The position numbers and the translations under genes were made by a program. 64,000 nt of DNA from Kiritimatiellia bacterium (lineage in GTDB: Bacteria > Verrucomicrobiota > Kiritimatiellia > RFP12 > UBA1067), in NCBI GenBank assembly GCA_016296065.1, contig JAEDKA010000003.1:5093-69092 (forward strand), written 5' to 3'. This document shows, piece after piece, positions 8,047 to 58,822 of the stretch. Within the stretch, counting starts at the first letter, position 1, and the number at the start of each line of letters is the position of its first letter. The notes under the pieces are model-generated. The model was not told where the DNA came from, searched no databases, and saw only the letters and a program-made list of their open reading frames with translations.

Positions 8047-9741
8047 CTATTTCGGCACCTTCAACCATTCGAGGTCGAGGCGCTTGCCCTTGGTGCGGAA
8101 CTCGAGCTTGACCAGGTTGCGGTTAGGCGGAGCGGACAGCGTGAAGGTGTGTTCCTTCCACTCCCTGCCCGTAGGCGGGAGCTTCACCTTCTCGACGTAT
8201 ATCCGCTTCTCGCACGTCTCGGGATCGGCGAACTCGGTGTTGTAGTCTTCCGGATTAATGACAGCCATGCCGCTCAATCCATCGCAGCGGTAGCGGATAG
8301 TGTACTCACCCGCCTTTGGCAGTGGTTTGCGGAACGGAAGGAACATAGGGAAGATGAAATCCTTCGCCGCCGAGGAGATGTACTGAGCGCCGGTGGACTT
8401 GTCTTTCTCCATGGAAAGTCCCGCGATCTTCGGCTGGATGAATTCGGCAAACCGGTTCACACCGTCTTTCCCCGGGTCATGGCGTTCGAGCGTACACCTG
8501 CCTGAGGCCTTCTGCGGAAGCCAGAGAAACGCGTGCGAATAGTCAAGGCCCCTTATGTCCAGGGCGTAGCCGATGTACCGCGTCTCCTCCGACTTCGAGA
8601 GGTCCCAGCCCCGGCCCCACTTGTAGTGCATGTAGACAATGTCGACCTCGCTGGAGAGCCTTCCGCGTCCGCCGCCCCAATTCGCCGGGCGCCTCCAGTA
8701 GTCGCCCTTCTCGCGGTTTATCGCGATGGGCGTCCACTCTATGTCAAAGCCCAGGTTGTACTTGCATATCTGGTTGACGCCGCGCAGGTACTGGTGCTTC
8801 AGGAATTCGATTGGGTCGACTGCGTCCTTCTTCGCGGACACTTCGCCTGTCACAGGATTGACCAGTGTATTCTGGGACCACAGAATCGTCAGGTTTTCGC
8901 CGAGCTGGCCTGCGCCCGGGAAGGGATGCCCGATGTCGCGCCCCATCTCGGAATACTGGACGTGCGGCTTCACCTGCGCACCGGTCAGCTCATTCGTCGT
9001 CACGAGGCGGCACATCTCGCGAATTGAGCCATTGCGCTCGCCGACCGGCCCTTGCTTGTTCGCAGTAAGGATCTCGACCATCTCGCAGTATGCATCCCAG
9101 TCGTCCTCCCAGATGGCGCGCGCCAGCGGTCCGCCGAGCGTGAACTGCAGCTGGTTCAGGAGTGTTGAGCGCCCCCACCAGAAGCCTCGCCCTATCGCGA
9201 TGAAGCGGTTGACTCCGTCCGTATCCTCCTTGGTCCAGGCGAGCGGTCCCGTCTTCGGCCCCGTGTAGCGCAGAAGCTCCGCCGCGCGCAGGTACCATCC
9301 CTCGGCGTTCGGCCAGCGGAACTGCGAGTCCCAGTGTGGACGCCCTCCCGTGATGTGGGTGTAGAACCAGCGGACGTAGTCCAGCGCGCGTTCACGGTAT
9401 TCCGCCTCGCCGGTGATTTCATACATGATGGCCTGGTAGTAGGCCGTCTGCGAATCCCATGCGCAGCGGTTGTCGAAGTCCGGACTGTCGATCTGCGTGA
9501 TTCCCTCGCCACGGCGCGCGAAGATTCGCGGCTTCCTCGAGAAGCGGTGGTCGTGCTTTGTGAGCGCGTCGTAGAGGGTCTTCCACGGCTCGACCCCGCC
9601 CTGCACGTTTGCCTTCAGCTGGTCGAGCTGCTCGCGGTTCAGCCCGATGCCAGGATGCCGAAAACGTCCTTGCGCAGCCGTCGCGTCAAAAGCGCAAAGG
9701 CCCGCGAAAAACACAATCGACACAAGGAATTTAGTTTTCAT
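8047..9741 (-). CDS. polysaccharide lyase-like protein (alginate lyase-type N-terminal region) with C-terminal beta-sandwich/CBM-like domain
   Basis: 564-aa ORF with a signal peptide. HPGIGLNREQLDQLKANVQGGVEPWK motif is shared with CDS 2..1465 and the stub at 13023..13265. Confidence 0.6.
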   Translation of the reverse strand: MKTKFLVSIVFFAGLCAFDATAAQGRFRHPGIGLNREQLDQLKANVQGGVEPWKTLYDALTKHDHRFSRKPRIFARRGEGITQIDSPDFDNRCAWDSQTAYYQAIMYEITGEAEYRERALDYVRWFYTHITGGRPHWDSQFRWPNAEGWYLRAAELLRYTGPKTGPLAWTKEDTDGVNRFIAIGRGFWWGRSTLLNQLQFTLGGPLARAIWEDDWDAYCEMVEILTANKQGPVGERNGSIREMCRLVTTNELTGAQVKPHVQYSEMGRDIGHPFPGAGQLGENLTILWSQNTLVNPVTGEVSAKKDAVDPIEFLKHQYLRGVNQICKYNLGFDIEWTPIAINREKGDYWRRPANWGGGRGRLSSEVDIVYMHYKWGRGWDLSKSEETRYIGYALDIRGLDYSHAFLWLPQKASGRCTLERHDPGKDGVNRFAEFIQPKIAGLSMEKDKSTGAQYISSAAKDFIFPMFLPFRKPLPKAGEYTIRYRCDGLSGMAVINPEDYNTEFADPETCEKRIYVEKVKLPPTGREWKEHTFTLSAPPNRNLVKLEFRTKGKRLDLEWLKVPK

Positions 9742-9747
9742 GACGGT

Positions 9748-9796
9748 ATAATAGCAGAAAACACCCCCTCACAACATCCCACTTTCGGGTGGGAAT
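9748..9796 (-). promoter_or_regulatory. leaderless promoter with TCCCAC-N6-GTGGGA box
   Basis: Minus strand reads ATTCCCACCCGAAAGTGGGAT-N22-TGCTATTAT-ACCGTC-ATG. Box-to-(-10) spacing is 23 nt, and the -10 lies 6 nt from the ATG at 9741. Confidence 0.6.
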
Positions 9797-11274: not shown

Positions 11275-12965
11275 TGCTCCTCCACAATCGCGGCCCAGCC
11301 GCCGTTTGAAGCGGCGGCAACGTTGAGCCTGTCCTTTGCTGAAAGCGCAAGCACGTCGATGGCGATCGCTCCGAGAGGCTTCGCGACGTCAGGATTCGCA
11401 TCGCGGAAAAGGCGCACCTTGAGCGCGCCGCTCCCTGCGAAATCGAGCGGGATGGAGAATTCGCGTTTTTGGCCCGCGTTGAGGCAGCCGACAAACCACT
11501 TCTTTCCGGCGCGGCGCGCAACAACTGCGATCTCTCCGATCTTTCCGTCTATGAAGCGCGTCTCGTCGAAGACGGTGGGTATCTCGCGCCAGAAGTCGAG
11601 CGCAGGGTTCTTCTCGTCGATCTGGTCCGGACGGGAATACCAGAAGAGGAACTGCCATCCGCTCGTGTAGACGCACGGCAATGCGAGCTGGTGCGCTAGC
11701 GAGTTCTTGACGCGTCCGTTCTTCCAGCACGGCGTGTAGTCGCCAGGGCCGTCCAGGAAGCGCGTGTACACAAGCGCAGCGTTGTGCCTCGCTACGGGCA
11801 TCTCCTCGTTGCCGTGGATGCCCTCGGACGTGAGGATGTTGGGCCACGCGTGCTGGAGCCCCGCGAGACGGAACTCGTCGTGGATATCGACCATCAGTTT
11901 CCTGTCGGCGCACATTTTTATCCAGTCGACGACCTGTTTGCGCCACTTCTGGCCGCCGACGTTGACGAAGCCGAACTTGACGCCCGCAACGCCCCATTCC
12001 GCCAGCTTGTCGAATATCGCCTCCGCGTTCTTCTTGAGCGGCTCGCGGTTTACGTAGAGGATTACGCCAAGGCCCTTCTCCTTTGCCGCGGCGATCACCT
12101 TGAAGATGTCGAGTTCCTCGCCCTTTGCAAGCTTCTCCGGCGCAAGGCCGGGCTTAAGCGGGTCCATCGTGCGCTCGTCGCCGTACCAGCCGCTGTCGAG
12201 CTCGATGAAGGAAAAGCCGTTGCGCGCCGCAAACTCGGCGCATTCGAGTCCGCACGCCGTCGTGAGCTTGGCGACGCGCAGCACCTTGCCGGGCCTGATC
12301 CAGCTCGTGTCCGCGATGCGCGAAGGCGGATTGAGCGCACGAAGCACCGCGTCCTGTCCCTGCGCGAGAGCGGAGCAGTCGGCCGCCGCGCGGACGTACC
12401 GCCACGGTGTCGTGCAGGGAAGCGTCACAGTTGAAGACCCTTCCAGGACCGCCCGGACGACGCCTCTTTTCGGTCCCGGCAAAAAGCGAATGCGCGAATA
12501 GTCCTCGACGCCTGCATCGCCGATGACGGCGGTGAAGTTCTTTCCTTCGACCACAAGCGGCGACTCCGCCGATCCCTCGATGAGATGCTCGTAGCTGCGC
12601 CCCTTGCCCGCGCCGTCGCCCCGGTACTGGTCCGGCATGGGCGCGATCTCGGCGATCGTCGAAATGGTCTTCGGCACGTATTCGCCCTGCGCGTGGCTCA
12701 CCGGCCAGCAGCGCAGGTCGTCGCCGAAGTCGATTGTCCAGGTCTCCTCGGCCACGGTGCGCTCGCCCTGGCCTTCGTATCTGATGCGCCATGCGACTCC
12801 ACCGGCTATGTTCGTCGTCTCGAGCGATGCGCCCACGCCGAGCTGCGGAAATGACACTTCGCACACCCTGGCGCCGTCGGGCGCGACGACATTGACAACG
12901 TCGCGTTCCACGGCAAATGCGGCGGACGCGACAACGGAAAAGACTGACAACAGCATGATTTTCAT
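11271..12965 (-). CDS. GH97-like glycoside hydrolase
   Basis: Start trimmed to MKIMLLSVFSVVASAAFA. The ORF-track start at 13100 reads through a pseudogene stub. GH97-type catalytic strings: NGFSFIELDSGW, GLGVILYVN, GVAGVKFGFVN, WPNILTSEGIHGNE. Confidence 0.6.
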   Translation of the reverse strand: MKIMLLSVFSVVASAAFAVERDVVNVVAPDGARVCEVSFPQLGVGASLETTNIAGGVAWRIRYEGQGERTVAEETWTIDFGDDLRCWPVSHAQGEYVPKTISTIAEIAPMPDQYRGDGAGKGRSYEHLIEGSAESPLVVEGKNFTAVIGDAGVEDYSRIRFLPGPKRGVVRAVLEGSSTVTLPCTTPWRYVRAAADCSALAQGQDAVLRALNPPSRIADTSWIRPGKVLRVAKLTTACGLECAEFAARNGFSFIELDSGWYGDERTMDPLKPGLAPEKLAKGEELDIFKVIAAAKEKGLGVILYVNREPLKKNAEAIFDKLAEWGVAGVKFGFVNVGGQKWRKQVVDWIKMCADRKLMVDIHDEFRLAGLQHAWPNILTSEGIHGNEEMPVARHNAALVYTRFLDGPGDYTPCWKNGRVKNSLAHQLALPCVYTSGWQFLFWYSRPDQIDEKNPALDFWREIPTVFDETRFIDGKIGEIAVVARRAGKKWFVGCLNAGQKREFSIPLDFAGSGALKVRLFRDANPDVAKPLGAIAIDVLALSAKDRLNVAAASNGGWAAIVEEQ

Positions 12966-12972
12966 GCCGGAT

Positions 12973-13018
12973 AGTATAGCAAAACGCACACTGTCCAGAC
13001 ATCCCACTTTCGGGGAGC
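12973..13018 (-). promoter_or_regulatory. leaderless promoter with CCGAAAGTGGGAT box
   Basis: Minus strand reads CTCCCCGAAAGTGGGAT-N22-TGCTATACT-ATCCGGC-ATG. Box spacing is 23 nt, and the -10 lies 7 nt from the ATG at 12965. Confidence 0.6.
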
Positions 13019-13265: not shown

Positions 13266-14728
13266 TCGTAGACTTTCACCTCCCAAAGGCCGGGATCGCC
13301 GTCGAGAATGCCGATGCGAAGATAGCGCACTTTCCGTCCGACCTTCGCGACGTGCGGCGAACGACAGGGCTTGCCGCGCTCTTCCGCGACCGGCATCCAC
13401 TCCTTTCCGTCGAGGCTGCACTCGAGTTTCCAGTTGTGTCCGAACGCAGGCTGCGTGAAGAACATCTTGACTTCGCCGACAAACGTCTCCGCGCCGAAGT
13501 CCGCCTGAATCCACGGGGACTTGTCGCGCCCGTCGGCCGCCCAGCGCGTGCCGTTGTTTCCGTCGCCCGCAAGCTGCGCGTCATATGCGAAGGTGCGCGT
13601 GTAGTCGCGGTGCGTGCGGCCGCGCGTCATGCGCGGACCGCGAACGGACGACGCGGTCCAGAATGCCTTGCGCGCGAGATTCGTGCGCGTCTCCTGGTTC
13701 GGCCCGAGACAGCCGACGCCCTTGAGGTCCGGCACAACGCGGACGATTCGCCCTTCCGAGTCGAACTCCATGCGGTTCGCCATAACCTGGCGAGTGGTCC
13801 CCCCTTCGCCGTACTCGAGGTAGACGATATAGTAATTGCCGTCCCACTCGAACACGTTGCCGTGGCCGGGTCCCCAGACGTTGCCGGGGTAGTTGCTCTC
13901 GACGACAATGGGATCGGACGGATCGGTCCAACCTTCTAGCGGCGAAACCTTAGACATCATATAGCCGTAGTGGTATCCGTCGCATCCGCCGATGGTGTAG
14001 AGGTAGTAGTAGATGCCGTTGCGCTTGAAAAGGCACGGCCCCTCCGAGTAGCCCTGAAGCGCGGTTTTTAGCTCGACGTGGCGTCCCACGGTCTTTGTCC
14101 GCTCGGCATTCAGCTTCGCGATCCAGCGCTTGCGCCAGACGATATAGGCCGTGCCGTCGTCGTCAACGAACGGATCGCCGTCGATGTCCGGCGCAACCGC
14201 AGCGGACTTGACCTGCTCGCGGTTGAGCGGACCGTTCGCGCCGGCTTCGCTCTCGATCTTTTCGGCGAAGCAGAACGGCCCCTCCGGACGATCCGCGACC
14301 ATCAGCACCGTCGGCGCGGGATTGCCCTTGGGGTCGACGAGCGTCACGTAGAGGTGGTAGCGTCCGTTCGTTTCCACTACCTTGCCGGGGGCCCAGTAGC
14401 GCCAGTAGCCGAAGCCTGGTTTGCCGTCCTTGTTCTTCCCCGTTTCGACGCCCTTGCACCAGTCGACGCCTTCGACCGCCGGCCCCTCGAACGACCAGTT
14501 GATGAAGTCCTTCGACTTCCAGACGACCGGCACGCCCGCCATCGAAAGCTCCTTGTCGATGTCCGTCGTGCCGTAGAGGTAGAACGTGTCGCCGAACTTG
14601 CTCACGCTCGGATCGGCTATCCAGTCGGGGATGACAGGGTTGAAGCTGCATTCGGCCTGGGCACTAAGCGCGACGGCGCAGGCGAACATCATTGCGGACG
14701 ACTTGACGTAAGAGCGTTTCGTTTTCAT
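13262..14728 (-). CDS. GH43 glycoside hydrolase with C-terminal F5/8 type C (discoidin/CBM32-like) domain
   Basis: Signal peptide, then NPVIPDWIADPSVSKFGDTFYLYGTTD (GH43). The C-terminus has GDGNNGTRWAADGRDKSPWIQADFG...YLRIGILDG (discoidin-like). Confidence 0.75.
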   Translation of the reverse strand: MKTKRSYVKSSAMMFACAVALSAQAECSFNPVIPDWIADPSVSKFGDTFYLYGTTDIDKELSMAGVPVVWKSKDFINWSFEGPAVEGVDWCKGVETGKNKDGKPGFGYWRYWAPGKVVETNGRYHLYVTLVDPKGNPAPTVLMVADRPEGPFCFAEKIESEAGANGPLNREQVKSAAVAPDIDGDPFVDDDGTAYIVWRKRWIAKLNAERTKTVGRHVELKTALQGYSEGPCLFKRNGIYYYLYTIGGCDGYHYGYMMSKVSPLEGWTDPSDPIVVESNYPGNVWGPGHGNVFEWDGNYYIVYLEYGEGGTTRQVMANRMEFDSEGRIVRVVPDLKGVGCLGPNQETRTNLARKAFWTASSVRGPRMTRGRTHRDYTRTFAYDAQLAGDGNNGTRWAADGRDKSPWIQADFGAETFVGEVKMFFTQPAFGHNWKLECSLDGKEWMPVAEERGKPCRSPHVAKVGRKVRYLRIGILDGDPGLWEVKVYE

Positions 14729-14734
14729 GCCAAT

Positions 14735-14781
14735 ATGATAGCAGAAAACGCGCGCCGGCTATATCCCACTTTCGGGGGGAT
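14735..14781 (-). promoter_or_regulatory. leaderless promoter with CCGAAAGTGGGAT box
   Basis: Minus strand reads ATCCCCCCGAAAGTGGGAT-N22-TGCTATCAT-ATTGGC-ATG. Box spacing is 23 nt, and the -10 lies 6 nt from the ATG at 14728. Confidence 0.6.
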
Positions 14782-17899: not shown

Positions 17900-20182
17900 C
17901 TAGTATTGCGGATCGGTTCGAACGCCCACGCGGTCTATGACGACCCCTGGATCGACAGCCGTGATCGTGCATGCCTTCGCCCCAGACGGAATTGGCACCT
18001 CAACGCGTATGAAGTTGTCCTGCACGGCCACTGCGCGGACAGAATCCTTCTCGCCGATGTTGGAATCGCTGCGCGGCACCTCCACGTACTTCGCCTCGCC
18101 GCCGTCGAAAGACACTTTCACGCCGAGCCTGAGCCCCGGCCAAAGCGCGAAGTCAGGAAGGAACTGAAGTACAATAGTCCTTTTTTCGACAGGATTAACA
18201 GAATTTACATGATTAAGAGTTGGGGATTCGAGTTGGAGATTGGAATTTTCATTTGCTCCCAATCCTGTCAATCTTGTAAATCCTGTCAAAGAGTATTTTA
18301 CCACTGCGCCATCGCCGACGCCTGGCTTGACAGGCAAAAGCGCGAGGGCGTTGCCGCTCGTGCCGAGGCCCACGACGTTCACCCATTCGCCGCCCTTCGC
18401 GCCGCGCTCGCGCGAGGCAGGCTCGAGCCACGTCGGCTCCGGAACGTCCGCACGGTACGCCGTGGCGACATAGTCGTTCCTGCTCTCGCCGCGGCGATCC
18501 TTCTGCGCCGGATCGTCCGGCTCGTTCCACGGCCACTGCATCTGCGAGCTCCAGCGGTTGTGCGCCGTCGGCTGGTACATCCCGGGCCTCTCGTCGATGG
18601 TGTCGATCCAGAAGCCGGACCACTTTCCGCCGTCAAGCGCGTCCCAGCGCGCATAAAGCGGATCCAGCACCGAATGCGCGTACGCCTTGTCGCGTCCTTC
18701 CAGATGGATTATACCGGCGTAGGCGAGGAAGCGCGTCTGGAAGCCGACGAGGCGGAAGTAGTCGTCAATATGACTGGGGGAAGCGGCGTCTCGCCGCTTC
18801 TGGGAAGAGGAGATATCATTTTTTTGATGAAGCGGCGGGACGCCGCTTCCCCCAGTCAGCTGTCGCTCTTCTTCCCCAGTCAGCAGTTGCTCTTCTTGAT
18901 GAAGCGGCGGGACGCCGCTTCTCCCAGTCAGCTGCCGCTCAATTTCAATGTCCTCGTTCAGCAGGGCATGGTATCGCCTCAGCAGCGACGATTTTACGCT
19001 CTCAGGCAGAGCGCGAGACCACTGGACGCACATGTGCTCGGGCTTGCGGTTGAATCCGAGATTAAAATACTCGTTCAAGTGCTGGACAATGCGGTCAGAT
19101 AGTTTTAAGACAGGATTGACAGGATTATCAGGATTGTTTTCTGAATCCTGTAAATCTTGTAAATCCTGTCCAAAAAAACTCTCCCTCGCCCACATTCTCA
19201 ACGCATCAGCCTGAGGATCAGTCTTTGCCTTCCAGCTCTCGGGGTCTGCGGCGAACTTTCCGAAGGCGTCGAGAAGTATCTCCGCCTGGAATACGTCGCC
19301 CGCATTCACCATCCAGACGTCGCGGACGCCGTTCTCCCAGCACTTCGCGACAAGCTCGTACCACATGAAGGCCGGCGGAGTGGTGCAAAGGTGGATATAT
19401 CCGTGGGGACGGCCCCAGTACGAGAGGTGCCAGTAGATGCCGCCGCCATAGCCCTCGCACTGCGGACCGCCAAGTCGGCGCACGTAGCCGAAGTTGTCGT
19501 TCACCCATAAGATCGTCGCATCCTCCAGAACCTTGAGCCCCGCGTTGAAGATCGGCAGGACCTCCTTGTACGGACAGAACAGCTTCGGCGCACCATCCGG
19601 CAGCATCGCGCACTGCGCGGCGAAGACCTCCTCGAGGATCTTAACCTTTTCCTCCGTCGTCTTTCCGTCCGGCATTCGCCCGTCGTGGATACCGCGCATG
19701 CCGATCGTCCACAAAACTCCCTTATCTCCGTTTCCCGTTCCCCTTCTCACTCCCTCGCGCCAGTAATCCACGAGGAAATCGCGATTCGACACCCAGCTCC
19801 ACTTCTTCTTGTCCGCTTTCGGCAAATAGCAGTTGTTGCGCAGCATCGGCTCGCAGTGGCTTGTGCCCACCGTGATGCCCCAGTGTCTCGCGAGTTCGAT
19901 ATTTTCGGGCCTCGCCGAAAACTCGTAGCCCCCCTCGTGCATCGCAGGCCATATCAGGTTGAGTCCGTTCGCCTTCATGAGCGCGAACACCTCCGCGTAT
20001 GCGTTGGTGCCGATCTGCTCCTGAGCGCCGAAGTGACGGACCGCCCACGGCCGCAGGCCCCAGTCCTCGTCGTTGACGAAGATGCCGCGGTATTTGACGC
20101 CCCGAGGGGAATCCGGAGGCTGCGCAAACAACGACTGCTGCAGACAGCAGACGGCGAACAACAGCGAACATGCGATTTTCAT
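17900..20182 (-). CDS. GH115-like glycoside hydrolase (alpha-glucuronidase family) carrying three in-frame repeat-element insertions
   Basis: N-terminal YRGIFVNDEDWGLRPWA is the GH115 hallmark. The ORF is intact over 760 aa despite low-complexity stretches encoded by palindromic repeats. Confidence 0.65.
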   Translation of the reverse strand: MKIACSLLFAVCCLQQSLFAQPPDSPRGVKYRGIFVNDEDWGLRPWAVRHFGAQEQIGTNAYAEVFALMKANGLNLIWPAMHEGGYEFSARPENIELARHWGITVGTSHCEPMLRNNCYLPKADKKKWSWVSNRDFLVDYWREGVRRGTGNGDKGVLWTIGMRGIHDGRMPDGKTTEEKVKILEEVFAAQCAMLPDGAPKLFCPYKEVLPIFNAGLKVLEDATILWVNDNFGYVRRLGGPQCEGYGGGIYWHLSYWGRPHGYIHLCTTPPAFMWYELVAKCWENGVRDVWMVNAGDVFQAEILLDAFGKFAADPESWKAKTDPQADALRMWARESFFGQDLQDLQDSENNPDNPVNPVLKLSDRIVQHLNEYFNLGFNRKPEHMCVQWSRALPESVKSSLLRRYHALLNEDIEIERQLTGRSGVPPLHQEEQLLTGEEERQLTGGSGVPPLHQKNDISSSQKRRDAASPSHIDDYFRLVGFQTRFLAYAGIIHLEGRDKAYAHSVLDPLYARWDALDGGKWSGFWIDTIDERPGMYQPTAHNRWSSQMQWPWNEPDDPAQKDRRGESRNDYVATAYRADVPEPTWLEPASRERGAKGGEWVNVVGLGTSGNALALLPVKPGVGDGAVVKYSLTGFTRLTGLGANENSNLQLESPTLNHVNSVNPVEKRTIVLQFLPDFALWPGLRLGVKVSFDGGEAKYVEVPRSDSNIGEKDSVRAVAVQDNFIRVEVPIPSGAKACTITAVDPGVVIDRVGVRTDPQY
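18188..18287. repeat. palindromic 9-mer-arm element (100 bp) inside GH115
   Basis: Left arm is GACAGGATTAACAGAATTTACATGATT and right arm AATCCTGTCAATCTTGTAAATCCTGTC, around a ~46-nt centre. The arms resemble the 53600-54426 elements. Confidence 0.75.
18772..18932. repeat. cluster of three GC-hairpin units GAAGCGGCG-NNN-CGCCGCTTC + CCCCAGTCAGC inside GH115
   Basis: Units lie at 18772-18800 (inverted orientation), 18829-18860 and 18901-18932. The same unit occurs at 26511-26542 in hemW. Confidence 0.8.
19109..19170. repeat. palindromic 9-mer-arm element (62 bp) inside GH115
   Basis: Sequence is GACAGGATTGACAGGATTATCAGGATT-gttttctg-AATCCTGTAAATCTTGTAAATCCTGTC. Confidence 0.8.
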
Positions 20183-24475: not shown

Positions 24476-25675
24476 ATGAAAATGAACACAAAGAAGAATC
24501 ACAGCCACGTGTTTACGTCGGAGTCTGTTTCGGAAGGACATCCCGACAAGGTGGCGGACCAGATATCCGATGCAATCCTCGATGCGTGCATGAAGCGCGA
24601 CCCGAACGCCCATGTCGCGTGCGAAACAACGGTGGGGCCAGACATTGTAGTGAATGTCGGCGAAATCACCTGCAAAGACTTCAAGAAGATCGACATTGAA
24701 AAAATCGCCCGCCGCGTCGTCAGGAAGATCGGCTATACTGTGCCGGAAGAGAAATTCGCCGCCGACACGTTCAAATACCTCAACTACCTCCACGGACAGT
24801 CCCCAGACATCAACCAGGGCGTCTCTCGCGCGAAGAAGGAAAAGCAGGGGGCGGGAGACCAGGGGATGATGTTCGGCTACGCGACGAACGAGACGAAGTC
24901 CTACATGCCAGCCGCGATCGTCTATTCGCACGACCTCCTTAAGATGTTCGCGAAGCTCCGCAAGACGAACCCGAAGTACTCGTGGCTCCGCCCCGACTCG
25001 AAGAGCCAGCTCTCCGTCGTTTACGAAAACGGACGCCCCGTCGCGATAGACACCGTCGTCGTCTCGCATCAGACGACCGAGGATGGCGCGACTAAGAAGC
25101 ACTACGCCGAAATCGAAAATCTCGCGAAGGAATACCTTTCCAAGACCGGGCTCCTCACCACAAAGACGAAGTTCTTCATCAACCCGACGGGCAAGTTCGT
25201 CGTCGGCGGACCTTGCGGTGACTCCGGGCTCACCGGGCGCAAGATCATCGTCGACACGTATGGCGGAATGGCCGCGCACGGTGGCGGCGCATTCAGCGGA
25301 AAGGACCCCTCCAAGGTCGACCGCTCCGCCGCGTACTACGCGCGCTACGCCGCGAAGAACATCGTAGCCGCAGGCCTTGCGGACCGCTGCCAGATCCAGG
25401 TCGCCTACGCGATCGGCGTCGACAAGCCGGTCAGCTTCTGCGTCAAGACGTTCGATACCGCACACGGCGTGACGAACGAGCAGCTCGAGAAGATGCTAGC
25501 GTCCGGCAGGGTGTTCGACTTCCGCCCGTACGCGCTCATCAAGGACCTCGGGCTCCTCAAGCCGAAGGGCTGGAAATACGAGGACACGGCGGCCTACGGA
25601 CACTTCGGACGCTCCAAGTTCCCGTGGGAGAAGCTGGATAAGGTCGCAAAGATCAAAAGCTACCTCAAGGTTTGA
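24476..25675 (+). CDS. metK: S-adenosylmethionine synthetase
   Basis: [25 protein letters not shown] and [10 protein letters not shown] signatures. 399 aa. Confidence 0.95.
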
Positions 25676-25703
25676 ACTCTTGAACCTTTGAACTTTTGAA
25701 CCT
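25672..25703 (+). repeat. 4 x 8-bp tandem TTGAACYY
   Basis: TTGAAC occurs at 25672, 25680, 25688 and 25696. Copy 1 contains the metK TGA, and copy 4 is the hemW TTG start. Confidence 0.85.
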
Positions 25704-26832
25704 CTACGTCCACTTTCCGTTCTGCAGGCGCAAGTGCTCGTACTGTGCCCTCTACTCGCGCGTCGGCTCAACGGCCGACGCGCGACGTCAATACATAGAG
25801 TCGATTAGGGGCGCATTAGGGTCTCATAGCGTCGCATCTCACTACGAGTCTTGCGACACCATATACTTCGGCGGCGGCTCGCCCGCACTCTGCGATCTCG
25901 CGCCTCTGCGCGATGCCCTTCACGCCCTATTCGACCCTATCTCCACCGAATTCACAGTGGAGCTGCATCCGCTCGATGTCACTCCCGGAAAGCTAGACGA
26001 ACTGAAATCCATCGGAGTCAACCGCATCTCGATGGGCGTGCAGTCGCTCGACGATGCTACGTTGCGCACTATGGGACGCGGCTACACTGCGGACGACGCA
26101 GCGCGTGCATTCGAACTCGTGAAGTCCCGCTTCGACAACGCCGGAATCGACCTGATTCTCGGCTACCCCGGCGACCCAACGACGACGAACGCCGAAGCCC
26201 TTCTCGCTCCTCTTGCCGACTGGGGTCTCCGCCACTGCTCGGTCTACTCGCTCCAGAACGAACGCGGACTCAAGAACATCCCGGACGACGACACTGTTCT
26301 GGACGGCATAAGGTCTGCCTCGCGCTTTCTCAAGTCCATCGGACTCTCTCGCTACGAAATCTCCAACTACGCCGCAACTGGCTTCGAATGCCGCCACAAC
26401 CTGGCCGTCTGGCGCGGCGAGGACTACATTGGACTTGGAGACGGCGCATATGGCCGCCTCGGTCTCATCCGTACGCGAAACTGGTGGGGACAGTCCCCGA
26501 TATTTTCAACGAAGCGGCGAGACGCCGCTTCCCCCAGTCAGCACCCACCCAAAACAGGGGGACTGTCCCCGGCGTTTGGCCAAAAAACAGGGGGACTGTC
26601 CCCGGCGTTTGAGACGGTAAGTGAAGAAAACGACGCGAAAGAGCGCACAATCTTTCGTTTGCGCACCATAGAGGGTTTAGACGCGGCGAAGCACCCGGAA
26701 TGGATACCGGCTCTTGAGCGCTTTGTCGAAGATGGTCTTCTAAGGCGCAGAAACGACACAGACCATCCGGTCTACGTGCTTACCGAGCGCGGGACGGAGG
26801 TCTGCGACGCGATTCTCGAAGAGATAATCTAG
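25696..26832 (+). CDS. hemW: HemW/HemN-family radical SAM protein with an in-frame repeat insertion
   Basis: (TTG)NLYVHFPFCRRKCSYCALYS has the CxxxCxxC radical-SAM motif, and a HemN_C-like tail is present. Residues NWWGQSPIFSTKRRDAASPSQHPPKTGGLSPAFGQKTGGLSPAF are encoded by hairpin repeats. Confidence 0.75.
   Translation: MNLYVHFPFCRRKCSYCALYSRVGSTADARRQYIESIRGALGSHSVASHYESCDTIYFGGGSPALCDLAPLRDALHALFDPISTEFTVELHPLDVTPGKLDELKSIGVNRISMGVQSLDDATLRTMGRGYTADDAARAFELVKSRFDNAGIDLILGYPGDPTTTNAEALLAPLADWGLRHCSVYSLQNERGLKNIPDDDTVLDGIRSASRFLKSIGLSRYEISNYAATGFECRHNLAVWRGEDYIGLGDGAYGRLGLIRTRNWWGQSPIFSTKRRDAASPSQHPPKTGGLSPAFGQKTGGLSPAFETVSEENDAKERTIFRLRTIEGLDAAKHPEWIPALERFVEDGLLRRRNDTDHPVYVLTERGTEVCDAILEEII
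26486..26611. repeat. composite of GC hairpin repeats inside hemW
   Basis: GGGGACAGTCCCC at 26486-26498. GAAGCGGCGAGACGCCGCTTCCCCCAGTCAGC at 26511-26542. A two-copy direct repeat of AAAACAGGGGGACTGTCCCCGGCGTTTG at 26551-26579 and 26583-26611. Confidence 0.85.
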
Positions 26833-36562: not shown

Positions 36563-36572
36563 ATCGCCGCCT

Positions 36573-36581
36573 ATTATAGCA
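36573..36581 (-). promoter_or_regulatory. extended -10 TGCTATAAT, 10 nt from the metG ATG
   Basis: Minus strand reads ATATGCTATAAT-AGGCGGCGAT-ATG, with no SD. Confidence 0.5.
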
Positions 36582-36622
36582 TATTGAGGGGACAAATTGT
36601 TGTGCGATCACTGCGCTTTCGG

Positions 36623-42255: not shown

Positions 42256-42319
42256 GTTGTCAGAAAGCAGTCGAGGCAGTCCCTAACTTTGCGTCGGCAG
42301 ACAGAAAGGCAGGTATCAT

Positions 42320-43060
42320 ATGAACAACAGGAACGACAAAACCATCGCGGTCGTGGCCGCAGCACTTGCGGCATGCGCGCTCACTGGCTGCAGGAGCTAT
42401 CCGCCCACAATGCGCAGCTCGAGCTATGTTACCTATCCCACCTCGTCTACAACCTATGTCTCGCCCGCCTCGTACGCACCGACCTATGTCGCGGAGCCGG
42501 GCGTGACCACCTCGACATACGTGACGGAACCCGTCGCCGTCGGCACTTCCACGACCTACGTTGAATCCTACTACAACGACCCCTACTACTATGGCCCCGG
42601 TTATTACGGCCCTGTATACTACGACGGGGGCGTTCCCCCGCCGCGCCACCACCACCACGGCCGCGGACCTGAACACGGTTACGGGAGAGGCCCGGTGATG
42701 CCTCCGCGCGGAGCCGGCCCGGCGCGCGGTCCGTCTCCGCACTCGTCCGCCAACGCCGTTGCGCAGCGCGCCGCCGAAATCCAGAGGAACGCCGCCGCTC
42801 GCAAGATCGAAGCCGCCCGCCAGGGCGCGGCGATGCGGGCTAGCGCAGCCAGAAACGCAGCGGCAATGCAGGCTAGCGCAGCCAGAAACGCGGCAGCGGC
42901 GCGCAACGCGCAGGCCGCGCGGGGCGCACAGGCGGCCCAGGCCGCCGCAGCGCGCAATGCGGCGGCGGCAAGGAACGCCGCCGCAAGGAACGCCGCAGCC
43001 GCCAGAAACGCCGCGGCAGCAAGAAACGCCGCGGCAGCGCGCGGGATGCGCCGACGCTAG
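42320..43060 (+). CDS. low-complexity lipoprotein with (A)ARNAA repeats
   Basis: Lipobox AACALTGC, then a Tyr/Pro/Thr-rich region, HHHH, and a C-terminal array AARNAAAARNAA... Confidence 0.6.
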   Translation: MNNRNDKTIAVVAAALAACALTGCRSYPPTMRSSSYVTYPTSSTTYVSPASYAPTYVAEPGVTTSTYVTEPVAVGTSTTYVESYYNDPYYYGPGYYGPVYYDGGVPPPRHHHHGRGPEHGYGRGPVMPPRGAGPARGPSPHSSANAVAQRAAEIQRNAAARKIEAARQGAAMRASAARNAAAMQASAARNAAAARNAQAARGAQAAQAAAARNAAAARNAAARNAAAARNAAAARNAAAARGMRRR

Positions 43061-45414
43061 CGTGCAAGAAGTCTGGCACGCGAAAGCATGGAACGTTCGC
43101 CGGACTTGAGAGGAACCTTGATCCACCCAAGGGAGGGCGTCTCGCCGGAAAGCGGACGCCTTCTTTCTTCCTTCGTCTCGGCGAGAACGGACACCGTCGT
43201 GTCCCATGCCGTCGTGTTGACGAGCTCCAGCGATCCGTCGATCCAACGCGCCTCGATGCGGTCGATTGCGCGAACATCGGCGGAGTCTCCGTCTAGAAGC
43301 ACGTAGACTCCGGGATTCTCCATCATCTCCATCGCGACGGTCGAGCACCAGTTCAAGTTCGAGTCCCCTTCGTCGATCGAGTTGCCGATTCCGGAGCGCT
43401 CCTCCCAGTCGCCGGTGTTGACGCGCTCGCTCACCGCGCCGTTCGTTCCGTCGGGGATGACGGGATGCAGCGGAGTATGCACGTACTGCCCGCAACCGCG
43501 CGCGCTGTCGCGCATGAGCTCGAACACCCGAACGTCGTCCGTAGCCCTCCAGACGCGAAGGAAGACGTCATGGCCCCAGAAGAACGGACCAGGCGCGCCG
43601 TGGCGGTTCTGAAGGTTCGCCCACACGGCGCCGGTCGTATGCGTGCCGAGGCGACCTTCGCGCGAGTCGGGCGGGAGCGGATAGTCCCACGCGTCGACCC
43701 ATGTCGCGTACAACGCCACCGCGTCGCGCGCGGCCTTGAGCCACTTTACGTCGCCCGTGTTCTCCCACAGGCGCTCGAAACTGACGGCGAGTTCGCCGAT
43801 GGACTCGCTGTCCGGACACTGCAGCGCCTCGCACGGTCCGCCACCCGAATAACCCTTTTCGAGGTGATTCTTGAGAAAATAGTCCCCGATCTCCGCCGCA
43901 GCTGCGGCGTACATTCCTCCGCCGAACTCCCGCTCGCACAGCAGCAGCGCCGCCGGAACGAGCGCGCCGTTAGTCGAGTTCCACGTCACGATGCGGCCGG
44001 TATCCGCGTCAAGGAAGTGCCCGAGCTGTCCGTTCTCCTTCCACACCTTCACGAGCGCGTCGGCGGCGCGGCGGCACATTTCGCGCCACTCCGCGCGGAC
44101 CGGATAGCCCAGGCGCTCCATCGCGCGAACCTGCTGCAGGACGGCGCATATCGCAACGGACTGCCGGCGGACCATTGTGTGGACGCGGTACTTCACCGGA
44201 TCGGGATACGCATCGCCGAAAATCTCCTTCCCGCGGCGAATGGCGTAGAAGAATCCACTCGCGCCCTGCATGGACTCCATCGCGTCGAAGGTGCGGGAGA
44301 CACGGCGGATACGCTCCGCATTCGGGGCGAGGACGTACGGAAGCGAGTGGTGTGGAGCACCGCACCATCCGATCTGTAGATGCCAGAAGATGCAGTCGGA
44401 GTCAGGCTTGTCGGCGATGTACTCTACGCCGTCTTTCGAATACCACTTGTCGGCGTCGTAGTGTCCGAGAACATACTCACAGAGCTTTCCGAAAGGCTCT
44501 ATGCGCGGACTCTCCCCCCGCGGCGTGATGTCCTTGCGGTGCGAGAAGACGAAGTCGAGGTATTCGTTCACGTCGGCGGCGCTGCACTCGAGGCGGAGAA
44601 TGCCGAGCGGAACCTTGCGCGCGGGGTCGGCGGGACGGTCGTCGGACGGCACGAAGCGAGTCATCCTGTACATGCGCGAGCGCACGCCCGGCGCGGAGAC
44701 GCGGAATGTGCACTTCCCGGATGCGGGATCCTCCTCAATGGCAAACCCAGTCTCGCCGGCTTCAGTGAATGGATCCGCAAGGATCACGACGCCCCTTCTG
44801 GCCCGCGGATCGAACCAGCCGAGGAGCGGAGCGGACGAGTCGCCCGCAAGCCACTCGATCTTCGCCGGGGCGCCGTCCGTCGAAAGACGGTAGAGGTCCG
44901 CCATCGTCACCGGCATGTCGGGAGAGCTTTCGAGGAGGTACGGCGGATACTTCATCGGCACGACGCGGAAGCGGTTCCCGCCGTAGCACACGGTCGGCGC
45001 GAACGGCCAGCAGTTGGTGGTCCATCCTGAAACCGTCTCCTCGTAGACGTTCGTCACGACGAACGACCTGCCGTTCTCCGCCGTCGGCGCGGCCGACGCG
45101 AAGGGAGCGGACAGGAGCAGCGCGGCCGCGAGCGTCGGAGCCGCAGCGCGCGACGCGGCGATGTCGAAGCGCCGGTTGCGGAAATAGAGCGCAATGTCGA
45201 CTGCAACGACGAAGAACAGAGCGACATACATCCAGATCACCCAGTTGCAGTCGTTGAGGATCTTGTGGACGATTCCGAAGACGTATCCAAGCTCGACAAG
45301 CAGCATGAACATTATGCTCTTTCCTTTCGCGCTCCTGGAGCGCAGTGACTTCGCAATTGAAAACGGCCACGAGAAGCCAAAGCAAACCAGCATCATGAAT
45401 TCAAATATGCCCAT
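43057..45414 (-). CDS. PQ-loop/SemiSWEET-like 3-TM module fused to a large (alpha/alpha)-toroid-like putative glycan-processing domain
   Basis: The N-terminal 85 aa (FGFSWPFSIAKSLRSRSAKGKSIMFMLLVELGYVFGIV...) align by eye with bacterial SemiSWEETs. A fourth hydrophobic segment follows, then ~680 aa I cannot assign to a family. Confidence 0.5.
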   Translation of the reverse strand: MGIFEFMMLVCFGFSWPFSIAKSLRSRSAKGKSIMFMLLVELGYVFGIVHKILNDCNWVIWMYVALFFVVAVDIALYFRNRRFDIAASRAAAPTLAAALLLSAPFASAAPTAENGRSFVVTNVYEETVSGWTTNCWPFAPTVCYGGNRFRVVPMKYPPYLLESSPDMPVTMADLYRLSTDGAPAKIEWLAGDSSAPLLGWFDPRARRGVVILADPFTEAGETGFAIEEDPASGKCTFRVSAPGVRSRMYRMTRFVPSDDRPADPARKVPLGILRLECSAADVNEYLDFVFSHRKDITPRGESPRIEPFGKLCEYVLGHYDADKWYSKDGVEYIADKPDSDCIFWHLQIGWCGAPHHSLPYVLAPNAERIRRVSRTFDAMESMQGASGFFYAIRRGKEIFGDAYPDPVKYRVHTMVRRQSVAICAVLQQVRAMERLGYPVRAEWREMCRRAADALVKVWKENGQLGHFLDADTGRIVTWNSTNGALVPAALLLCEREFGGGMYAAAAAEIGDYFLKNHLEKGYSGGGPCEALQCPDSESIGELAVSFERLWENTGDVKWLKAARDAVALYATWVDAWDYPLPPDSREGRLGTHTTGAVWANLQNRHGAPGPFFWGHDVFLRVWRATDDVRVFELMRDSARGCGQYVHTPLHPVIPDGTNGAVSERVNTGDWEERSGIGNSIDEGDSNLNWCSTVAMEMMENPGVYVLLDGDSADVRAIDRIEARWIDGSLELVNTTAWDTTVSVLAETKEERRRPLSGETPSLGWIKVPLKSGERSMLSRARLLAR

Positions 45415-53538: not shown

Positions 53539-53599
53539 TGTTTTTCTCCTTGTTTAGTTGTTTATTGAAACTGCTGTGACGTTTGTTTTAGATACTCAT

Positions 53600-53684
53600 A
53601 ATTCTGTTAATTCTGTCAATCATGTGTCTTAAAACCTCCCGTGCTTTTTTGTTTAGACACATCATTTACAGAATTTACAGAATT
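53600..53684. repeat. 85-bp palindromic element, copy 1
   Basis: AATTCTGTTAATTCTGTCAATCATGTGTCTTAAAAC...GTTTAGACACATCATTTACAGAATTTACAGAATT. It overlaps the 3' end of the GxxExxY ORF. Confidence 0.9.
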
Positions 53685-54074
53685 AAGACCTGTTGTGGTT
53701 TTGGGGCGATAGACGCGATATTTGTGCTTGCGCTCAAGCGATGCTGCACCGAAGTTGATAAGCAGCCCATCGTCTATTCCCGTTGCAGCAAGGTAATTGA
53801 CAAGCTGTGCCTCATGCGCAGCACACAAGGCAGAGACAGCCTTCAACTCAAGAATCATGCACTTCTCGACAATGATGTCTGCCCTGTAGTCGCCAACACG
53901 TACACCCTTGTATTCTACGGGAATCGGAACTTCCTTCTCGCATTCAAGGCCAAGCTCCTTCAATTCGATCATCAAGGCGTTCTTATACACCTCTTCTAGA
54001 TAGCCCGGCCCGAAATGCCTATGCACCGCCATTGCTGCGCCTGTTATCTTGTAGCGAAGTTCCTCAACATTCAT
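53616..54074 (-). CDS. GxxExxY protein (PD-(D/E)XK-like fold family)
   Basis: Start trimmed to MNVEELRYKITGAAMAVHRHFGPGYLEEVYKNAL, which contains GYLEEVY (GxxExxY). The last ~20 codons are encoded by repeat copy 1. Confidence 0.7.
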   Translation of the reverse strand: MNVEELRYKITGAAMAVHRHFGPGYLEEVYKNALMIELKELGLECEKEVPIPVEYKGVRVGDYRADIIVEKCMILELKAVSALCAAHEAQLVNYLAATGIDDGLLINFGAASLERKHKYRVYRPKTTTGLNSVNSVNDVSKQKSTGGFKTHD

Positions 54075-54426
54075 AATTCTGTTAATTCTGTTAATCATGT
54101 GTCTTAAAACCTTCCGCGCCTTTTTGTTTAGACACATCATTTACAGAATTTACAGAATTGAGTGGCTCGCGATTGAAATAGGCAACGGGCCTTTTGCATT
54201 CCGTTCTCCCGCGCGAATCTCCAGCTACTTTAATTCTGTTAATTCTGTTAATCATGTGTCTTAAAAACTTTCCGTGCTTTTTTGTTTAGACACATCATTT
54301 ACAGAATTTACAGAATTGATGGTCTCGCGATTGAAATAGGCAACGGGCCTTTTGCATTCCGCTCTCCAGTGCGAATCTCCAGCTACTTTAATTCTGTTAA
54401 TTCTGTTAATCATGTGTCTTAAAAAC
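54075..54426. repeat. tandem array: two full and one half copy of the 85-bp palindrome, each separated by a near-identical 72-bp segment
   Basis: Palindromes lie at 54075-54159, 54232-54317 and 54390-54426 (left arm only). The period is 157-158 bp. Confidence 0.9.
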
Positions 54427-54515
54427 TATTCGTAGTCGGTTTCCATCTTCTTCTCGATCTCGCTCTCAATCCGCCCCATGTTGTCGATGTTGTCGGACAT
54501 TGTCATCTCCTTATC

Positions 54516-56000
54516 TTATTTGTGTTCACTTGCCGACAGTGCGGCACGGCCTTTGTCCGTCAGTCGATACTTCTGAAGTTTGGAATGCTTAACTTCAGGC
54601 TTAGTCTGTTCAATAAAACCCGCCCTTAGCGTCGGACGAATATATCCCTCCCGGAAATAATTGCGGTCACGGATATGCAGTGCCTTCAGAAGTTCAGCCG
54701 TGCCAAGCTCCAAGTTCTTGAGAGCTTGCAGAAGCCTTTTCTGCTTTTCGTCAACTGGTGGGGTAACTGGTGGGGTAACTGGTGGGGTATCATGGTGGGT
54801 CGCGAGTGATGGCGAAGCATTCTTCGGCACTCCGTATGACGAGTTGTCGACGGCTGCGACGAGCTGTTCGTCTGTGAATCCATAGAGAAGATTCGGCAGT
54901 GTAACGCGAAAATAGTCGCTCTCGGACTCAAGGACAGGCATGCGTTTCCCAAGGTTGACCGACAGTTTCTCGTAGTCCTCGTTGAGCTTCTTGAACCCGC
55001 TGCCCTTGCGTTCCATGAGATCGAGCCGTTCAAACATATCCGCAAGGCACTTATTGCGGCGACGCGACGGAATCCGCCGAATGTTCGGATACTCCTGAAC
55101 CTTGCGGTCGCCCGGCATACCGCCTGGGGAGGTTATTTCCATCCGGTCGTCGAAGATATCAACATGGACTTCGCTACCTGTCTCAAGGTAGTCGCGGTGA
55201 ACGAGTCCGTTGATGAGCATCTCCTGAACAGAGCGTTCGGGATACTCGCGGAAGTTCACGCGGTCCGTCGGACGTTTGTGCCACGCGCGGCGTGAGTGAA
55301 GGCGAACGAAGTCCTCGGCGTATTTTAACAGCTGGAGAAGCCCGCCGCTGTACTCCTGGTCGTCGGCCGCATCCATTACGCCCGCAGTCATGTCGAGCCC
55401 GTTCCAGCGCGTGCAGAACACGCGAGAATGACGTATCGGCGATTCGTCAGCCAACAGCGCGCCGGTATTTGTCATCACGCCCGTCTCCGTGACGAGTCCG
55501 AATGATAGAAAATCCACCTTGCTCATCTTTGCGCCGTTCACCTTTTCATAGAGGTTCTTGAGCGCGATGAAAGTGAAGTCGGACGCCCGGTATCCGCCGA
55601 AGCAGGACACACAGTCCCATTCCTGCCCGGATCGCTCCATCAGGAACTGCGTCAATGCCGGCCCGGTCAACAACATCTTGACCGATCCCGTACGATAGTG
55701 GAAGCGCCCCTGATAGCTGACTGGGAAGGCGCTTGCTGCGACCTTGATCCGTATCACATCCTTGCCCTGCTTCTTGAGCAACGCGACGTCGGCCACGATG
55801 CCCATCGTGTTGCGGATGGAGTTGGGGATGTCCTCCATCAGCTTGTTAGCGTTCTTGACGCCGACGGGCTTCTTGGTTCCGTCCTCTATGCCGATGTAGA
55901 GCGTCCCGCCCTTGGCGTTCGCGTAGCCGCAGATCCACTCCAGGTACTTCTCGTGCCAGGACTCCTTGTACTCGACCGTCTGGTTCTCCTCGCGTTTCAT
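54516..56000 (-). CDS. AlbA_2 (Schlafen-like) DNA-binding / HATPase_c_4-type ATP-binding protein
   Basis: N-terminal EENQTVEYKESWHEKYLEWICGYANAKGGTLYIGIEDG is the AlbA_2 signature. TPPVTPPVTPPV linker and a C-terminal wHTH-like tail. Confidence 0.65.
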   Translation of the reverse strand: MKREENQTVEYKESWHEKYLEWICGYANAKGGTLYIGIEDGTKKPVGVKNANKLMEDIPNSIRNTMGIVADVALLKKQGKDVIRIKVAASAFPVSYQGRFHYRTGSVKMLLTGPALTQFLMERSGQEWDCVSCFGGYRASDFTFIALKNLYEKVNGAKMSKVDFLSFGLVTETGVMTNTGALLADESPIRHSRVFCTRWNGLDMTAGVMDAADDQEYSGGLLQLLKYAEDFVRLHSRRAWHKRPTDRVNFREYPERSVQEMLINGLVHRDYLETGSEVHVDIFDDRMEITSPGGMPGDRKVQEYPNIRRIPSRRRNKCLADMFERLDLMERKGSGFKKLNEDYEKLSVNLGKRMPVLESESDYFRVTLPNLLYGFTDEQLVAAVDNSSYGVPKNASPSLATHHDTPPVTPPVTPPVDEKQKRLLQALKNLELGTAELLKALHIRDRNYFREGYIRPTLRAGFIEQTKPEVKHSKLQKYRLTDKGRAALSASEHK

Positions 56001-58596: not shown

Positions 58597-58822
58597 TTTG
58601 TTTTCCTCCTGTTGTTTTCGTTGGCATAGAGGCCACCTGGAGCCGCAGAAACGCTGTCGCCCGTCTCTGCGCGGGACGGGCGACCTTCGGAACTTGTTTT
58701 CCCAAAAGGGCCCATCCTTTTTCCACCGCGGCGTTCCCGCTCGGTTGGCAGATGCGCTCCCGCACATCACTCTTGATGGTCTCAACACCGTATATTATAT
58801 CATATTGCTAATTCAGCCACAA
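58597..58822 (-). promoter_or_regulatory. sigma70-type promoter plus ~190-nt structured leader (copy A)
   Basis: TTGTGG (58817-58822), 17-nt spacer, TATAAT (58794-58799). P1 hairpin at 58751-58768 and terminator-like hairpin at 58656-58684. It is a near-duplicate of 61025-61254. Confidence 0.6.
58643..58684 (-). terminator. leader terminator-like hairpin, copy A (weak U tract)
   Basis: GUCGCCCGUC-9 nt-GACGGGCGAC followed by AGCGUUUCUG. Confidence 0.45.

Follow-up and report, generated by a model that had tools for sequence, protein, structure and literature searches.

The stretch of DNA analysed here, 64,000 nucleotides of a contig from a Kiritimatiellia bacterium (JAEDKA010000003.1) and hereafter the window, includes a gene for a GH115 glycoside hydrolase whose open reading frame (ORF) runs through three blocks of palindromic repeat DNA, named blocks i, ii and iii (Table 1). 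An earlier note, made from the sequence alone, had singled these blocks out as repeat elements inserted in frame. Direct sequence reading, translation and a repeat finder verified all three where that note had placed them, and the minus-strand ORF encodes their peptides exactly as first quoted. In a Pfam profile search the GH115 product matches PF15979 (E 8e-79, 266 bits) and PF17829 (30 bits), and its matches in a PDB sequence search are solved GH115 structures. When a predicted model was compared with solved structures using Foldseek, the best match was BtGH115A (5by3; E 1e-33, template-modelling (TM) score 0.65). The N-terminus carries a signal-like hydrophobic segment. The GC content of the gene is about 0.6, and blocks i and iii stand out as AT-rich islands with a GC content of 0.35-0.38.

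In blocks i and iii each arm is an array of three 9-nt units, (G)ACAGGATT, the second array being the inverse of the first, and the arms continue into a T-run at one end of the block and an A-run at the opposite end. The core of block i (18188-18287) reads GACAGGATT AACAGAATT TACATGATT, then the loop, then AATCCTGTC AATCTTGTA AATCCTGTC, and its extended arms (18185-18219 and 18256-18290) are 77% complementary. The core of block iii (19109-19170) has the same architecture, with arms (19103-19135 and 19144-19176) that are 82% complementary. Block ii belongs to a family unrelated to that of blocks i and iii; it is a cluster of GC hairpins that resemble repetitive extragenic palindromic (REP) sequences. 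Each hairpin has the form GAAGCGGCG-NNN-CGCCGCTTC, with an 11-nt tail, CCCCAGTCAGC, after hairpins 2 and 3 and, inverted, before hairpin 1; an extra copy of the tail, lacking a hairpin, lies at 18874-18884. The two-nonamer pattern has 23 matches in the window (0.11 expected) and the GC hairpin pattern has four (0.22 expected). Compared with shuffled sequences, the predicted RNA folds are very stable for block i (-31.9 kcal/mol, z -4.7), block iii (-33.8 kcal/mol, z -6.9) and the distal inverted pair of block ii (-64 kcal/mol, z -10.4), while two coding segments of the GH115 gene, folded as controls, gave z-scores of -1.9 and -0.2. An Rfam scan of the whole window placed no family on the blocks, its only matches being two S-adenosylmethionine (SAM) riboswitches elsewhere. 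When the translated block ii was searched against 5.8 billion proteins, no match received a score, probably owing to word-index or composition filters.

The loop of block i also contains, at 18217-18241, 1.9 tandem copies of a 13-nt unit, GAGTTGGAGATTC, encoding ..SNLQLESPTL. This peptide resembles the LELEVGVG..SNSNSTLQL family, which is present at site iii of other orthologs; going by this likeness, block i may be a composite in which one family is nested in another.

Table 1. Positions in the window of the host gene, the repeat elements and associated features
Feature	Position	Strand	Details
GH115 glycoside hydrolase gene	17900..20182	minus	ORF of 760 amino acids (aa); host of three insertions
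Block i, nonamer-array palindrome	18181..18294		arrays 18188-18214 and 18261-18287; 46-nt loop; T-run/A-run ends; residues ~632-665 (LTGFTRLTGLGANENSNLQLESPTLNHVNSVNPVE)
Block ii, three REP-like GC hairpins	18771..18945		hairpins 18780-18800, 18829-18849, 18901-18921; residues ~418-472
Block iii, nonamer-array palindrome	19103..19177		arrays 19109-19136 and 19144-19170; 8-nt loop; encodes GQDLQDLQDSENNPDNPVNPV, residues ~338-358
In-frame hemW insertion	26479..26607	plus	hemW coding sequence 25696-26832; encodes ...WGQSPIFSTKRRDAASPSQHPPKTGGLSPAFGQKT...
GxxExxY / PDDEXK_3 nuclease-fold gene	53616..54074	minus	PF13366 E 9e-40; TIGR04256 E 2e-41
Intergenic nonamer cluster, ACAGAATT variant	53596..54427		one GxxExxY cassette, then 2.2 tandem 158-nt units
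Arrays of the nonamer cluster	53600-53625, 53659-53684, 54075-54100, 54134-54159, 54232-54257, 54292-54317, 54390-54415
SAM-I/IV riboswitches	58685-58784, 61117-61216	minus	50 bits; gathering score 41

Only one other gene in the window, hemW, bears palindromic inserts. Its insert consists of one block-ii unit, i.e., a hairpin at 26511-26531 with its tail at 26532-42, and three GGGGACWGTCCCC hairpins (at 26486, 26558 and 26591); the recurrence of the block-ii unit in this gene, which had been pointed out before, amounts to that one copy (26511-26542). An alignment with the closest homologs (P0121 and P0122) shows that these lack about 35 aa of the insert. The HemW profile match breaks at residue 261, and the equivalog scores 172 bits, below the curated cut-off of 205; a PDB alignment for hemW stops short of the insert. 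In the contig of a relative (L007), the block-ii unit is intergenic, 20 nt past a stop codon. An ORF at 42260..43495 on the minus strand was considered as a further insert-bearing gene and rejected, its translation looking non-coding. At the start of hemW, 3.9 copies of an octamer, TTTGAACT, span 25671-25703 and overlap the annotated TTG start.

To place the blocks within the GH115 family, we used alignments of 19 and of 121 sequences, the latter including 120 orthologs. Orthologs with names are Kiritimatiellae metagenome-assembled genomes (MAGs) at 56-62% identity, and the closest orthologs are 88% identical. In both alignments the shortest orthologs (635-666 aa) are without all three blocks: they have 17-20, 17 and 7-8 residues at the three sites, against 38, 66 and 39 in the window. 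Because these orthologs carry nothing of the blocks at the three sites, the blocks are lineage-specific in-frame insertions. Junction peptides predicted from the inserts include YSLTGFTR, LTGLGANENSNLQLESPTLNHVNSVNPVEK and RDAASPSHIDDYFR.

Assemblers can be misled by repeats, and a decaying gene might tolerate any insertion; i.e., the blocks could be chimeras of assembly, or the gene a pseudogene. Independent assemblies from ENA and JGI, however, share the same insertions at the same sites, so the insertions are not assembly artefacts. The ORF is intact, and the ratio of nonsynonymous to synonymous substitution (dN/dS) in the GH115 core, compared at the DNA level with six orthologs, is 0.08-0.20. 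The GH115 gene is thus intact and under purifying selection, not a pseudogene as the earlier note had allowed it might be, and we regard artefact or decay as scarcely credible.

The position of the blocks in the protein was assessed in two AlphaFold models, the better of which was built on 103 sequences (predicted local distance difference test (pLDDT) 75.7, predicted TM score 0.80). In both, all three blocks are low-confidence coil flanked by confident helices or strands. Block i has pLDDT below 50 at residues 637-665, between strands 627-631 and 668-674; block ii has pLDDT below 50 at 421-468, at the tip between helices 394-418 and 469-495; and block iii lies between helices 323-336 and 357-378, with the pLDDT minimum at 350-354. 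These predictions are consistent with the suggestion that insertion sites are confined to surface loops.

The 121-sequence alignment extends this picture. Variation in length is concentrated in four loops (window residues ~147-156, 338-359, 418-472 and 632-662), and the peptides at these hot spots, across the 120 orthologs, are nearly all recognisable as translated repeat DNA of many types. These include QDLQD..NPVNPV, LTGLTGLTGFEK..NPVNLVNPVQ, TKNTKDTKNCEHENLCDLCVLCG, SRVGKSDVGCPKSDV, LELEVGVG..SNSNSTLQL, HAEAQRGRGRR..LCDLCLSAPLR, TNLNCQNCSQ..STRSTCSTRLK, AAKNAKGAKD, RVERVDRV, PTHSPTHPL and others. The underlying DNA again consists of palindromes or half-palindromes, mostly with arms of 9-nt periodicity, and several of the families recur elsewhere in the loci that we fetched. 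A given family can be found at different GH115 sites and in different frames. At the site of block iii, other repeat families take its place in orthologs, and in orthologs of 88-93% identity block ii ranges from a remnant up to three hairpins. Some inserts sit within other inserts, which suggests that hairpin loops are themselves favoured as targets. The earlier note had offered a dispersed element family and loop-confined insertion as alternative reasons for three hits in one gene; both hold together, the mobility itself being an interpretation. At the fourth hot-spot loop (19715-19740, residues ~148-156), the window has GTGNGDKG, three residues more than the shortest orthologs, and most orthologs have 5-34 extra repeat-derived residues; the window peptide may be the remnant of an old insert.

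All inserts in the 120 orthologs, in hemW and in a third gene described below (on a Kiritimatiellia contig, L060) are in frame and free of stops. The AATCCTGTN arm is stop-free only when read as NPV, the other frames being rich in Ile and Leu or containing Cys, with stops for some N. Each in-frame copy seen does read this arm as NPV, at about nine sites taken as independent; the chance of this under random frames is roughly (1/3)^9, a figure that assumes independence. For the opposite arm, the frames in use are LTG or QDL. Since the 9-nt period equals three codons, the frame is kept along an array.

Such consistency bears on whether the inserts reach the protein. The 23S rRNA intervening sequences are excised by RNase III. 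The stem of the present elements, around a loop or a small ORF, resembles those sequences (PMC4990558), so one might suppose that the inserts are removed before or during translation, either by RNA processing of that kind or by ribosomal bypassing. In that case, however, the in-frame and stop-free state of every insert would be needless, as would consistent use of the benign NPV frame, and cleavage by RNase III without ligation would destroy the mRNA. We consider removal very improbable. Read from the ORF, the blocks appear to be translated as extra surface loops.

Among orthologs of 88-93% identity, the alleles at the three sites assort independently, and sliding identity along the GH115 gene, at both protein and DNA level, is mosaic, a pattern that fits homing, ordinary recombination or constraint alike. 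Independent assortment, tracts of 100% nucleotide identity around block iii, replaced segments that reach some 15 nt into diverged flanking sequence at either end, and the signal-like N-terminus would all suit adaptive hypervariable loops, in which diversifying selection (e.g., by phage, protease or host recognition) recruits repeat DNA, mainly through allele exchange. The same elements, however, sit in cytoplasmic housekeeping genes, namely hemW and the glutamine amidotransferase of L060; across phyla they are mostly intergenic and hence not specific to surface-exposed proteins; and they keep a palindromic DNA structure that selection at the protein level would not need. This explanation is therefore unlikely in our view, though we do give it some weight.

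A second possibility is that the hairpins act in the mRNA or DNA, as pause sites at domain borders, in mRNA stability or in protein binding, with the peptide incidental. The very stable predicted folds (z -4.7 to -10.4) agree with such a role, as does the location of block iii at the border of the catalytic domain and a helical bundle. Blocks i and iii are also conserved above the synonymous sites of GH115, block i exceeding its third codon positions. Yet what orthologs carry at these sites is an unrelated element or nothing, and recombination tracts can explain the conservation, so that we find a role of this kind distinctly unlikely. For block iii, recent recombination is the simplest reading of its identity, because the 100% tract sits in a mosaic gene; constraint on the hairpin is also possible.

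Taken together, we think it rather probable that the blocks are dispersed palindromic repeats that entered the GH115 gene after its split from insert-free relatives and persist through harmless translation. Copies would arrive by a transposition-like or recombination-dependent process. Blocks i and iii would be a cargo-less form of a cross-phylum cassette, described below, in which the same two arrays bracket a gene of the GxxExxY family, and their arrival would possibly be catalysed in trans by the GxxExxY protein. Selection would then retain only those copies that lie in a surface loop, in frame, stop-free and hydrophilic, and the benign frames (LTG or QDL for one arm, NPV for the other) would be those actually used. 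Because selection would filter position, frame, stops and hydrophilicity, one lineage after another would fill the same few loops, in some cases with an element landing inside an older one, and the loop alleles would subsequently be shuffled through homologous recombination. We infer mobility from the distribution of the elements and their presence or absence among orthologs.

Several observations weigh against passive insertion and tolerance. Translation is predicted from the ORF, and the structural models are of moderate confidence only. Close orthologs hold a different element rather than an empty site, insertion being deduced from distant comparisons, and there is no clean empty site among close GH115 relatives. 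By eye, no target-site duplication was seen in about 100 cross-phylum copies or between filled and other GH115 alleles; the element flanks are extensions of the palindrome (T-run/A-run or TAG/CTA), with no direct repeat seen. Finally, three lineages with a synonymous divergence of 0.15-0.28 share block iii at 100% DNA identity, and in sliding DNA windows the block lies within a 180-nt tract of 100% identity; instead of passive tolerance, this might point to constraint or function.

The nonamer arrays are not peculiar to this genome. A search of species-representative genomes for the exact 26-nt pattern of three nonamers found it in at least 119 genome stretches, from Chloroflexota, Verrucomicrobiota, Acidobacteriota, Bacteroidota, Desulfobacterota, Proteobacteria, Chlamydiota, Kiritimatiellia, Lentisphaerae and one archaeon; isolates among the carriers include Thiobaca trueperi and a Marinilabiliaceae strain. 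Almost all of the stretches share one layout, i.e., a T-run, N, G, three copies of ACAGGATT, a variable loop, three copies of AATCCTGT, C, N and an A-run; at least one match (L017, Neobacillus) is instead a tandem repeat of coding type. In forward-then-reverse array pairs, the loop takes any length from 4 to 185 nt without a break, and a further, distinct class spans 385-443 nt. Uniqueness to GH115 would have told against the earlier proposal, but the elements have further copies in hemW, in the intergenic region at 53.6-54.4 kb, among relatives and across many phyla.

Outside Kiritimatiellia, the nonamer palindromes in the cross-phylum sample are mostly intergenic. When this sample was combined with the window, four of 55 short nonamer palindromes lay inside long open frames, all of them in Kiritimatiellia: four of eight there (two in the window and two in L060), against 0 of 47 elsewhere (Fisher test by hand, ~2e-4). 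Intragenic copies are thus a Kiritimatiellia trait within this sample. The L060 gene (1363-4149, minus strand; Kiritimatiellia MAG JAZSLQ010000021) encodes a glutamine amidotransferase (PF13522 and PF13537); its in-frame, repeat-derived inserts number at least five and come from several families, namely AEAQR..LRVSAPPRE, STRSTRLK, a nested NLVNPVNPVQ, LTGLTGLTRL..NPVNLVNPVK and PNHSTTKLPNHS.

The gene encoding the GxxExxY protein lies within the intergenic nonamer cluster of the window. It scores 141 bits against TIGR04256 (curated cut-off 35) and 136 bits against PF13366 (cut-off 22), and is a bona fide member of the family; a PDB sequence search gave no match. Its start codon adjoins one nonamer array, and the other array encodes its C-terminal tail, LNSVNSVNDV.... 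The arms of blocks i and iii had been said to match the palindromes at 53600-54426. They do belong to the same nonamer family, with the qualification that the arrays of the cluster are in permuted order, i.e., three AATTCTGT, a spacer and three ACAGAATT. The tandem 158-nt units consist of the same arrays plus 66-72 nt of filler, and one way to read the cluster is as a gene-bearing unit with two tandem units behind it that lack cargo. One of its palindromes (53592-53692) has a predicted RNA fold of -35.3 kcal/mol (z -8.2). The idea that the short palindromes of the window derive from the cassette by internal deletion was rejected, their 66-72-nt loops being unlike the cassette interior. Adjoining the cluster is a Schlafen/AlbA_2-HATPase_c_4-Fic-like_C gene (54516-56000, minus strand).

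A GxxExxY gene is found in five of the six members of the 385-443-nt loop class (Chthoniobacterales, Blastocatellia (two), Kiritimatiellia and the window, 53668-54100), and in each of the five its start codon directly follows the left array. For three of them, the C-terminal tail ...NPVNPV(NPV) runs up to a stop that the right array provides through its GTCTAA or GTCTAG end; for the remaining two the frame closes before or beyond this point. The reciprocal search of metagenomes, with an alignment of these GxxExxY proteins as the query, gave 75 loci with both flanks. At 56 of these, the two flanks form an inverted repeat whose score exceeds those of all shuffled controls, with an arm that is nearly always a GACAGGATT or GACAGAATT array. 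Distant GxxExxY genes on a plasmid or chromid (L207, Treponema; L209, Fusobacteria; L208, Prevotella), 40-43% identical to that of the window, have related flanking motifs: a single ACACGGATT or AATCCGTGT motif on each side in Treponema (inverted) and in the Fusobacteria strain (direct), and ACAAATCGN arrays in Prevotella. At the level of sequence, the pairing of gene and motif suggests a deep functional tie. GxxExxY genes were found on eight plasmid or chromid records; carriage by phage was not found, and no vector was obvious. The published phylogeny of the family indicates multiple transfers (PMC3424549).

From these associations we advance, tentatively and as a proposal that may well prove wrong, that the arrays and GxxExxY form a hitherto unrecognised mobile element in many phyla. 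The 125-aa PD-(D/E)XK nuclease would recognise or cut the (G)ACAGGATT arrays or their cruciform, and the short palindromes would be non-autonomous derivatives or homing sites. Together with other families, they would have spread into the coding loops of Kiritimatiellia at or beyond the scale seen in Rickettsia. Three points count against the main reading above, with blocks i and iii as a cargo-less form of the cassette: GxxExxY adjoins the arrays at only five of the 119 array loci, the loops of the short elements lack similarity to the cassette interior, and the family is without known function (PMC3424549). The association of GxxExxY with nonamer arrays appears undescribed. If the proposal is true, the system would, with the other palindrome families, be a regular source of new surface loops in Kiritimatiellia.

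Ogata et al. (2000 and 2002) reportedly found Rickettsia palindromic elements (RPE) in frame in unrelated functional genes. The elements described here differ from RPE in occurring in another phylum and, so far as one can tell, in sequence; in having arms made of 9-nt unit arrays, with many families competing for the same loops; and in reaching three or more inserts per gene, while the element is mostly intergenic in other phyla. Their arms are also common to a nuclease-gene cassette, and to our knowledge RPE have no such partner. What the two share is that RPE are ~100-bp palindromic repeats lying in frame in unrelated genes, translated and compatible with the fold, in hosts that remain functional (PMC10969869). 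Here, palindromic blocks of 62-175 nt lie in frame in a host with a dN/dS of 0.08-0.20, and their placement in a fold-compatible surface loop is a prediction of the models. The host being probably of the Kiritimatiellia, we treat these elements as an analogue of RPE and not as a member, and the comparison with Rickettsia drawn earlier is supported in that sense. In-frame insertion is not restricted to Rickettsia (PMC10969869, PMC5896051): fusions of small mobile repeats, i.e., transposable elements of the miniature inverted-repeat type (MITEs), to genes are known, among them a case in Coxiella (PMC5896051), and a 2024 review, for which the Rickettsia elements are the extreme case, speculates that the same occurs elsewhere (PMC10969869). 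A literature search with Kiritimatiellia and repeat terms gave no in-frame repeat insertion among its ten top-ranked matches, and neither the nonamer strings nor the peptide NPVNPVNPV was found in the literature searched. Since no report was found there, such insertion does appear undescribed for genomes of this kind, as first suggested; the same seems to hold for this lineage, for its element families, for the way in which many families re-use the same loops and for the GxxExxY link.

MITEs such as Coxiella QMITE1/2, ERIC and BOX are similar in being small, AT-rich or hairpin-forming, multi-copy, without transposase and occasionally intragenic in frame (PMC5896051, PMC10969869). The present elements likewise have terminal inverted repeats and are small, non-coding and dispersed in many copies. 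Classical MITEs have a target-site duplication and a cognate insertion-sequence transposase, neither of which was found here; the only gene with the same terminal arrays encodes the 125-aa PD-(D/E)XK-fold protein, which is no known transposase. The block-ii unit, in which a short tail adjoins a GC-rich hairpin of 21 nt and which forms clusters of alternating orientation, resembles REP sequences and bacterial interspersed mosaic elements (BIMEs), as does the copy directly past a stop codon in the relative. Those elements are extragenic, however, whereas all four block-ii copies in the window lie within ORFs, and the unit TTGATGAAGCGGCGGGACGCCGCTTCCCCCAGTCAGC has no terminal GTAG/CGTC tag (tags as in PMC3733652). 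The closest architectural relative of the GxxExxY cassette (~440-490 nt) is the ORF-bearing 23S rRNA intervening sequence of Coxiella and Leptospira, a ~430-nt selfish unit whose inverted repeats form a stem enclosing a single small ORF, itself from a multi-copy family (PMC4990558). There, the ORF encodes the S23p four-helix bundle and the site is an rRNA helix; here, the ORF is GxxExxY, the sites are intergenic DNA or protein loops, and RNA excision is not indicated. Mitochondrial genes of Nematomorpha also contain long in-frame inverted repeats with both arms translated (PMC6649704); unlike those described here, they are organellar, locally generated, not dispersed families, and without an associated gene.

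In-frame colonisation by palindromes, largely tied to Rickettsia so far, is thus met in a free-living or gut polysaccharide degrader. The four re-used loops of the 120 orthologs make up a natural map of insertion tolerance in GH115, and the inserts show how repeat DNA makes new loop sequence. Through the link between arrays and GxxExxY, a very large family of "unknown" nuclease-fold proteins gains a function that can be tested. For annotation, the array family explains many small spurious ORFs in metagenomes, of the NPVNPV, LTGLTG and QDLQD type, and the inserts break profile matches (the hemW score, for one, is too low for its curated cut-off) and make protein clusters look more diverse than they are.

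Other repeats in the window were also recorded. The methionyl-tRNA synthetase gene (34382-36595, minus strand) contains 4.4 in-frame copies of an 18-nt unit (34743-34832), encoding SAIKSG four times; this repeat lies in the linker that joins the anticodon-binding domain to the C-terminal tRNA-binding domain. A 194-nt duplicate (58649-58842 and 61081-61274; 91% identical) carries a SAM-I/IV riboswitch in each copy. Lastly, a conserved 63-nt stretch that ends in ATCCCACTTTCGGG occurs at 9730-9792, 12955-13017 and 14717-14779 (62-78% identical), in each case at the start of one of three successive ORFs on the minus strand. A polysaccharide-utilisation cluster may have in this stretch a common promoter or leader.

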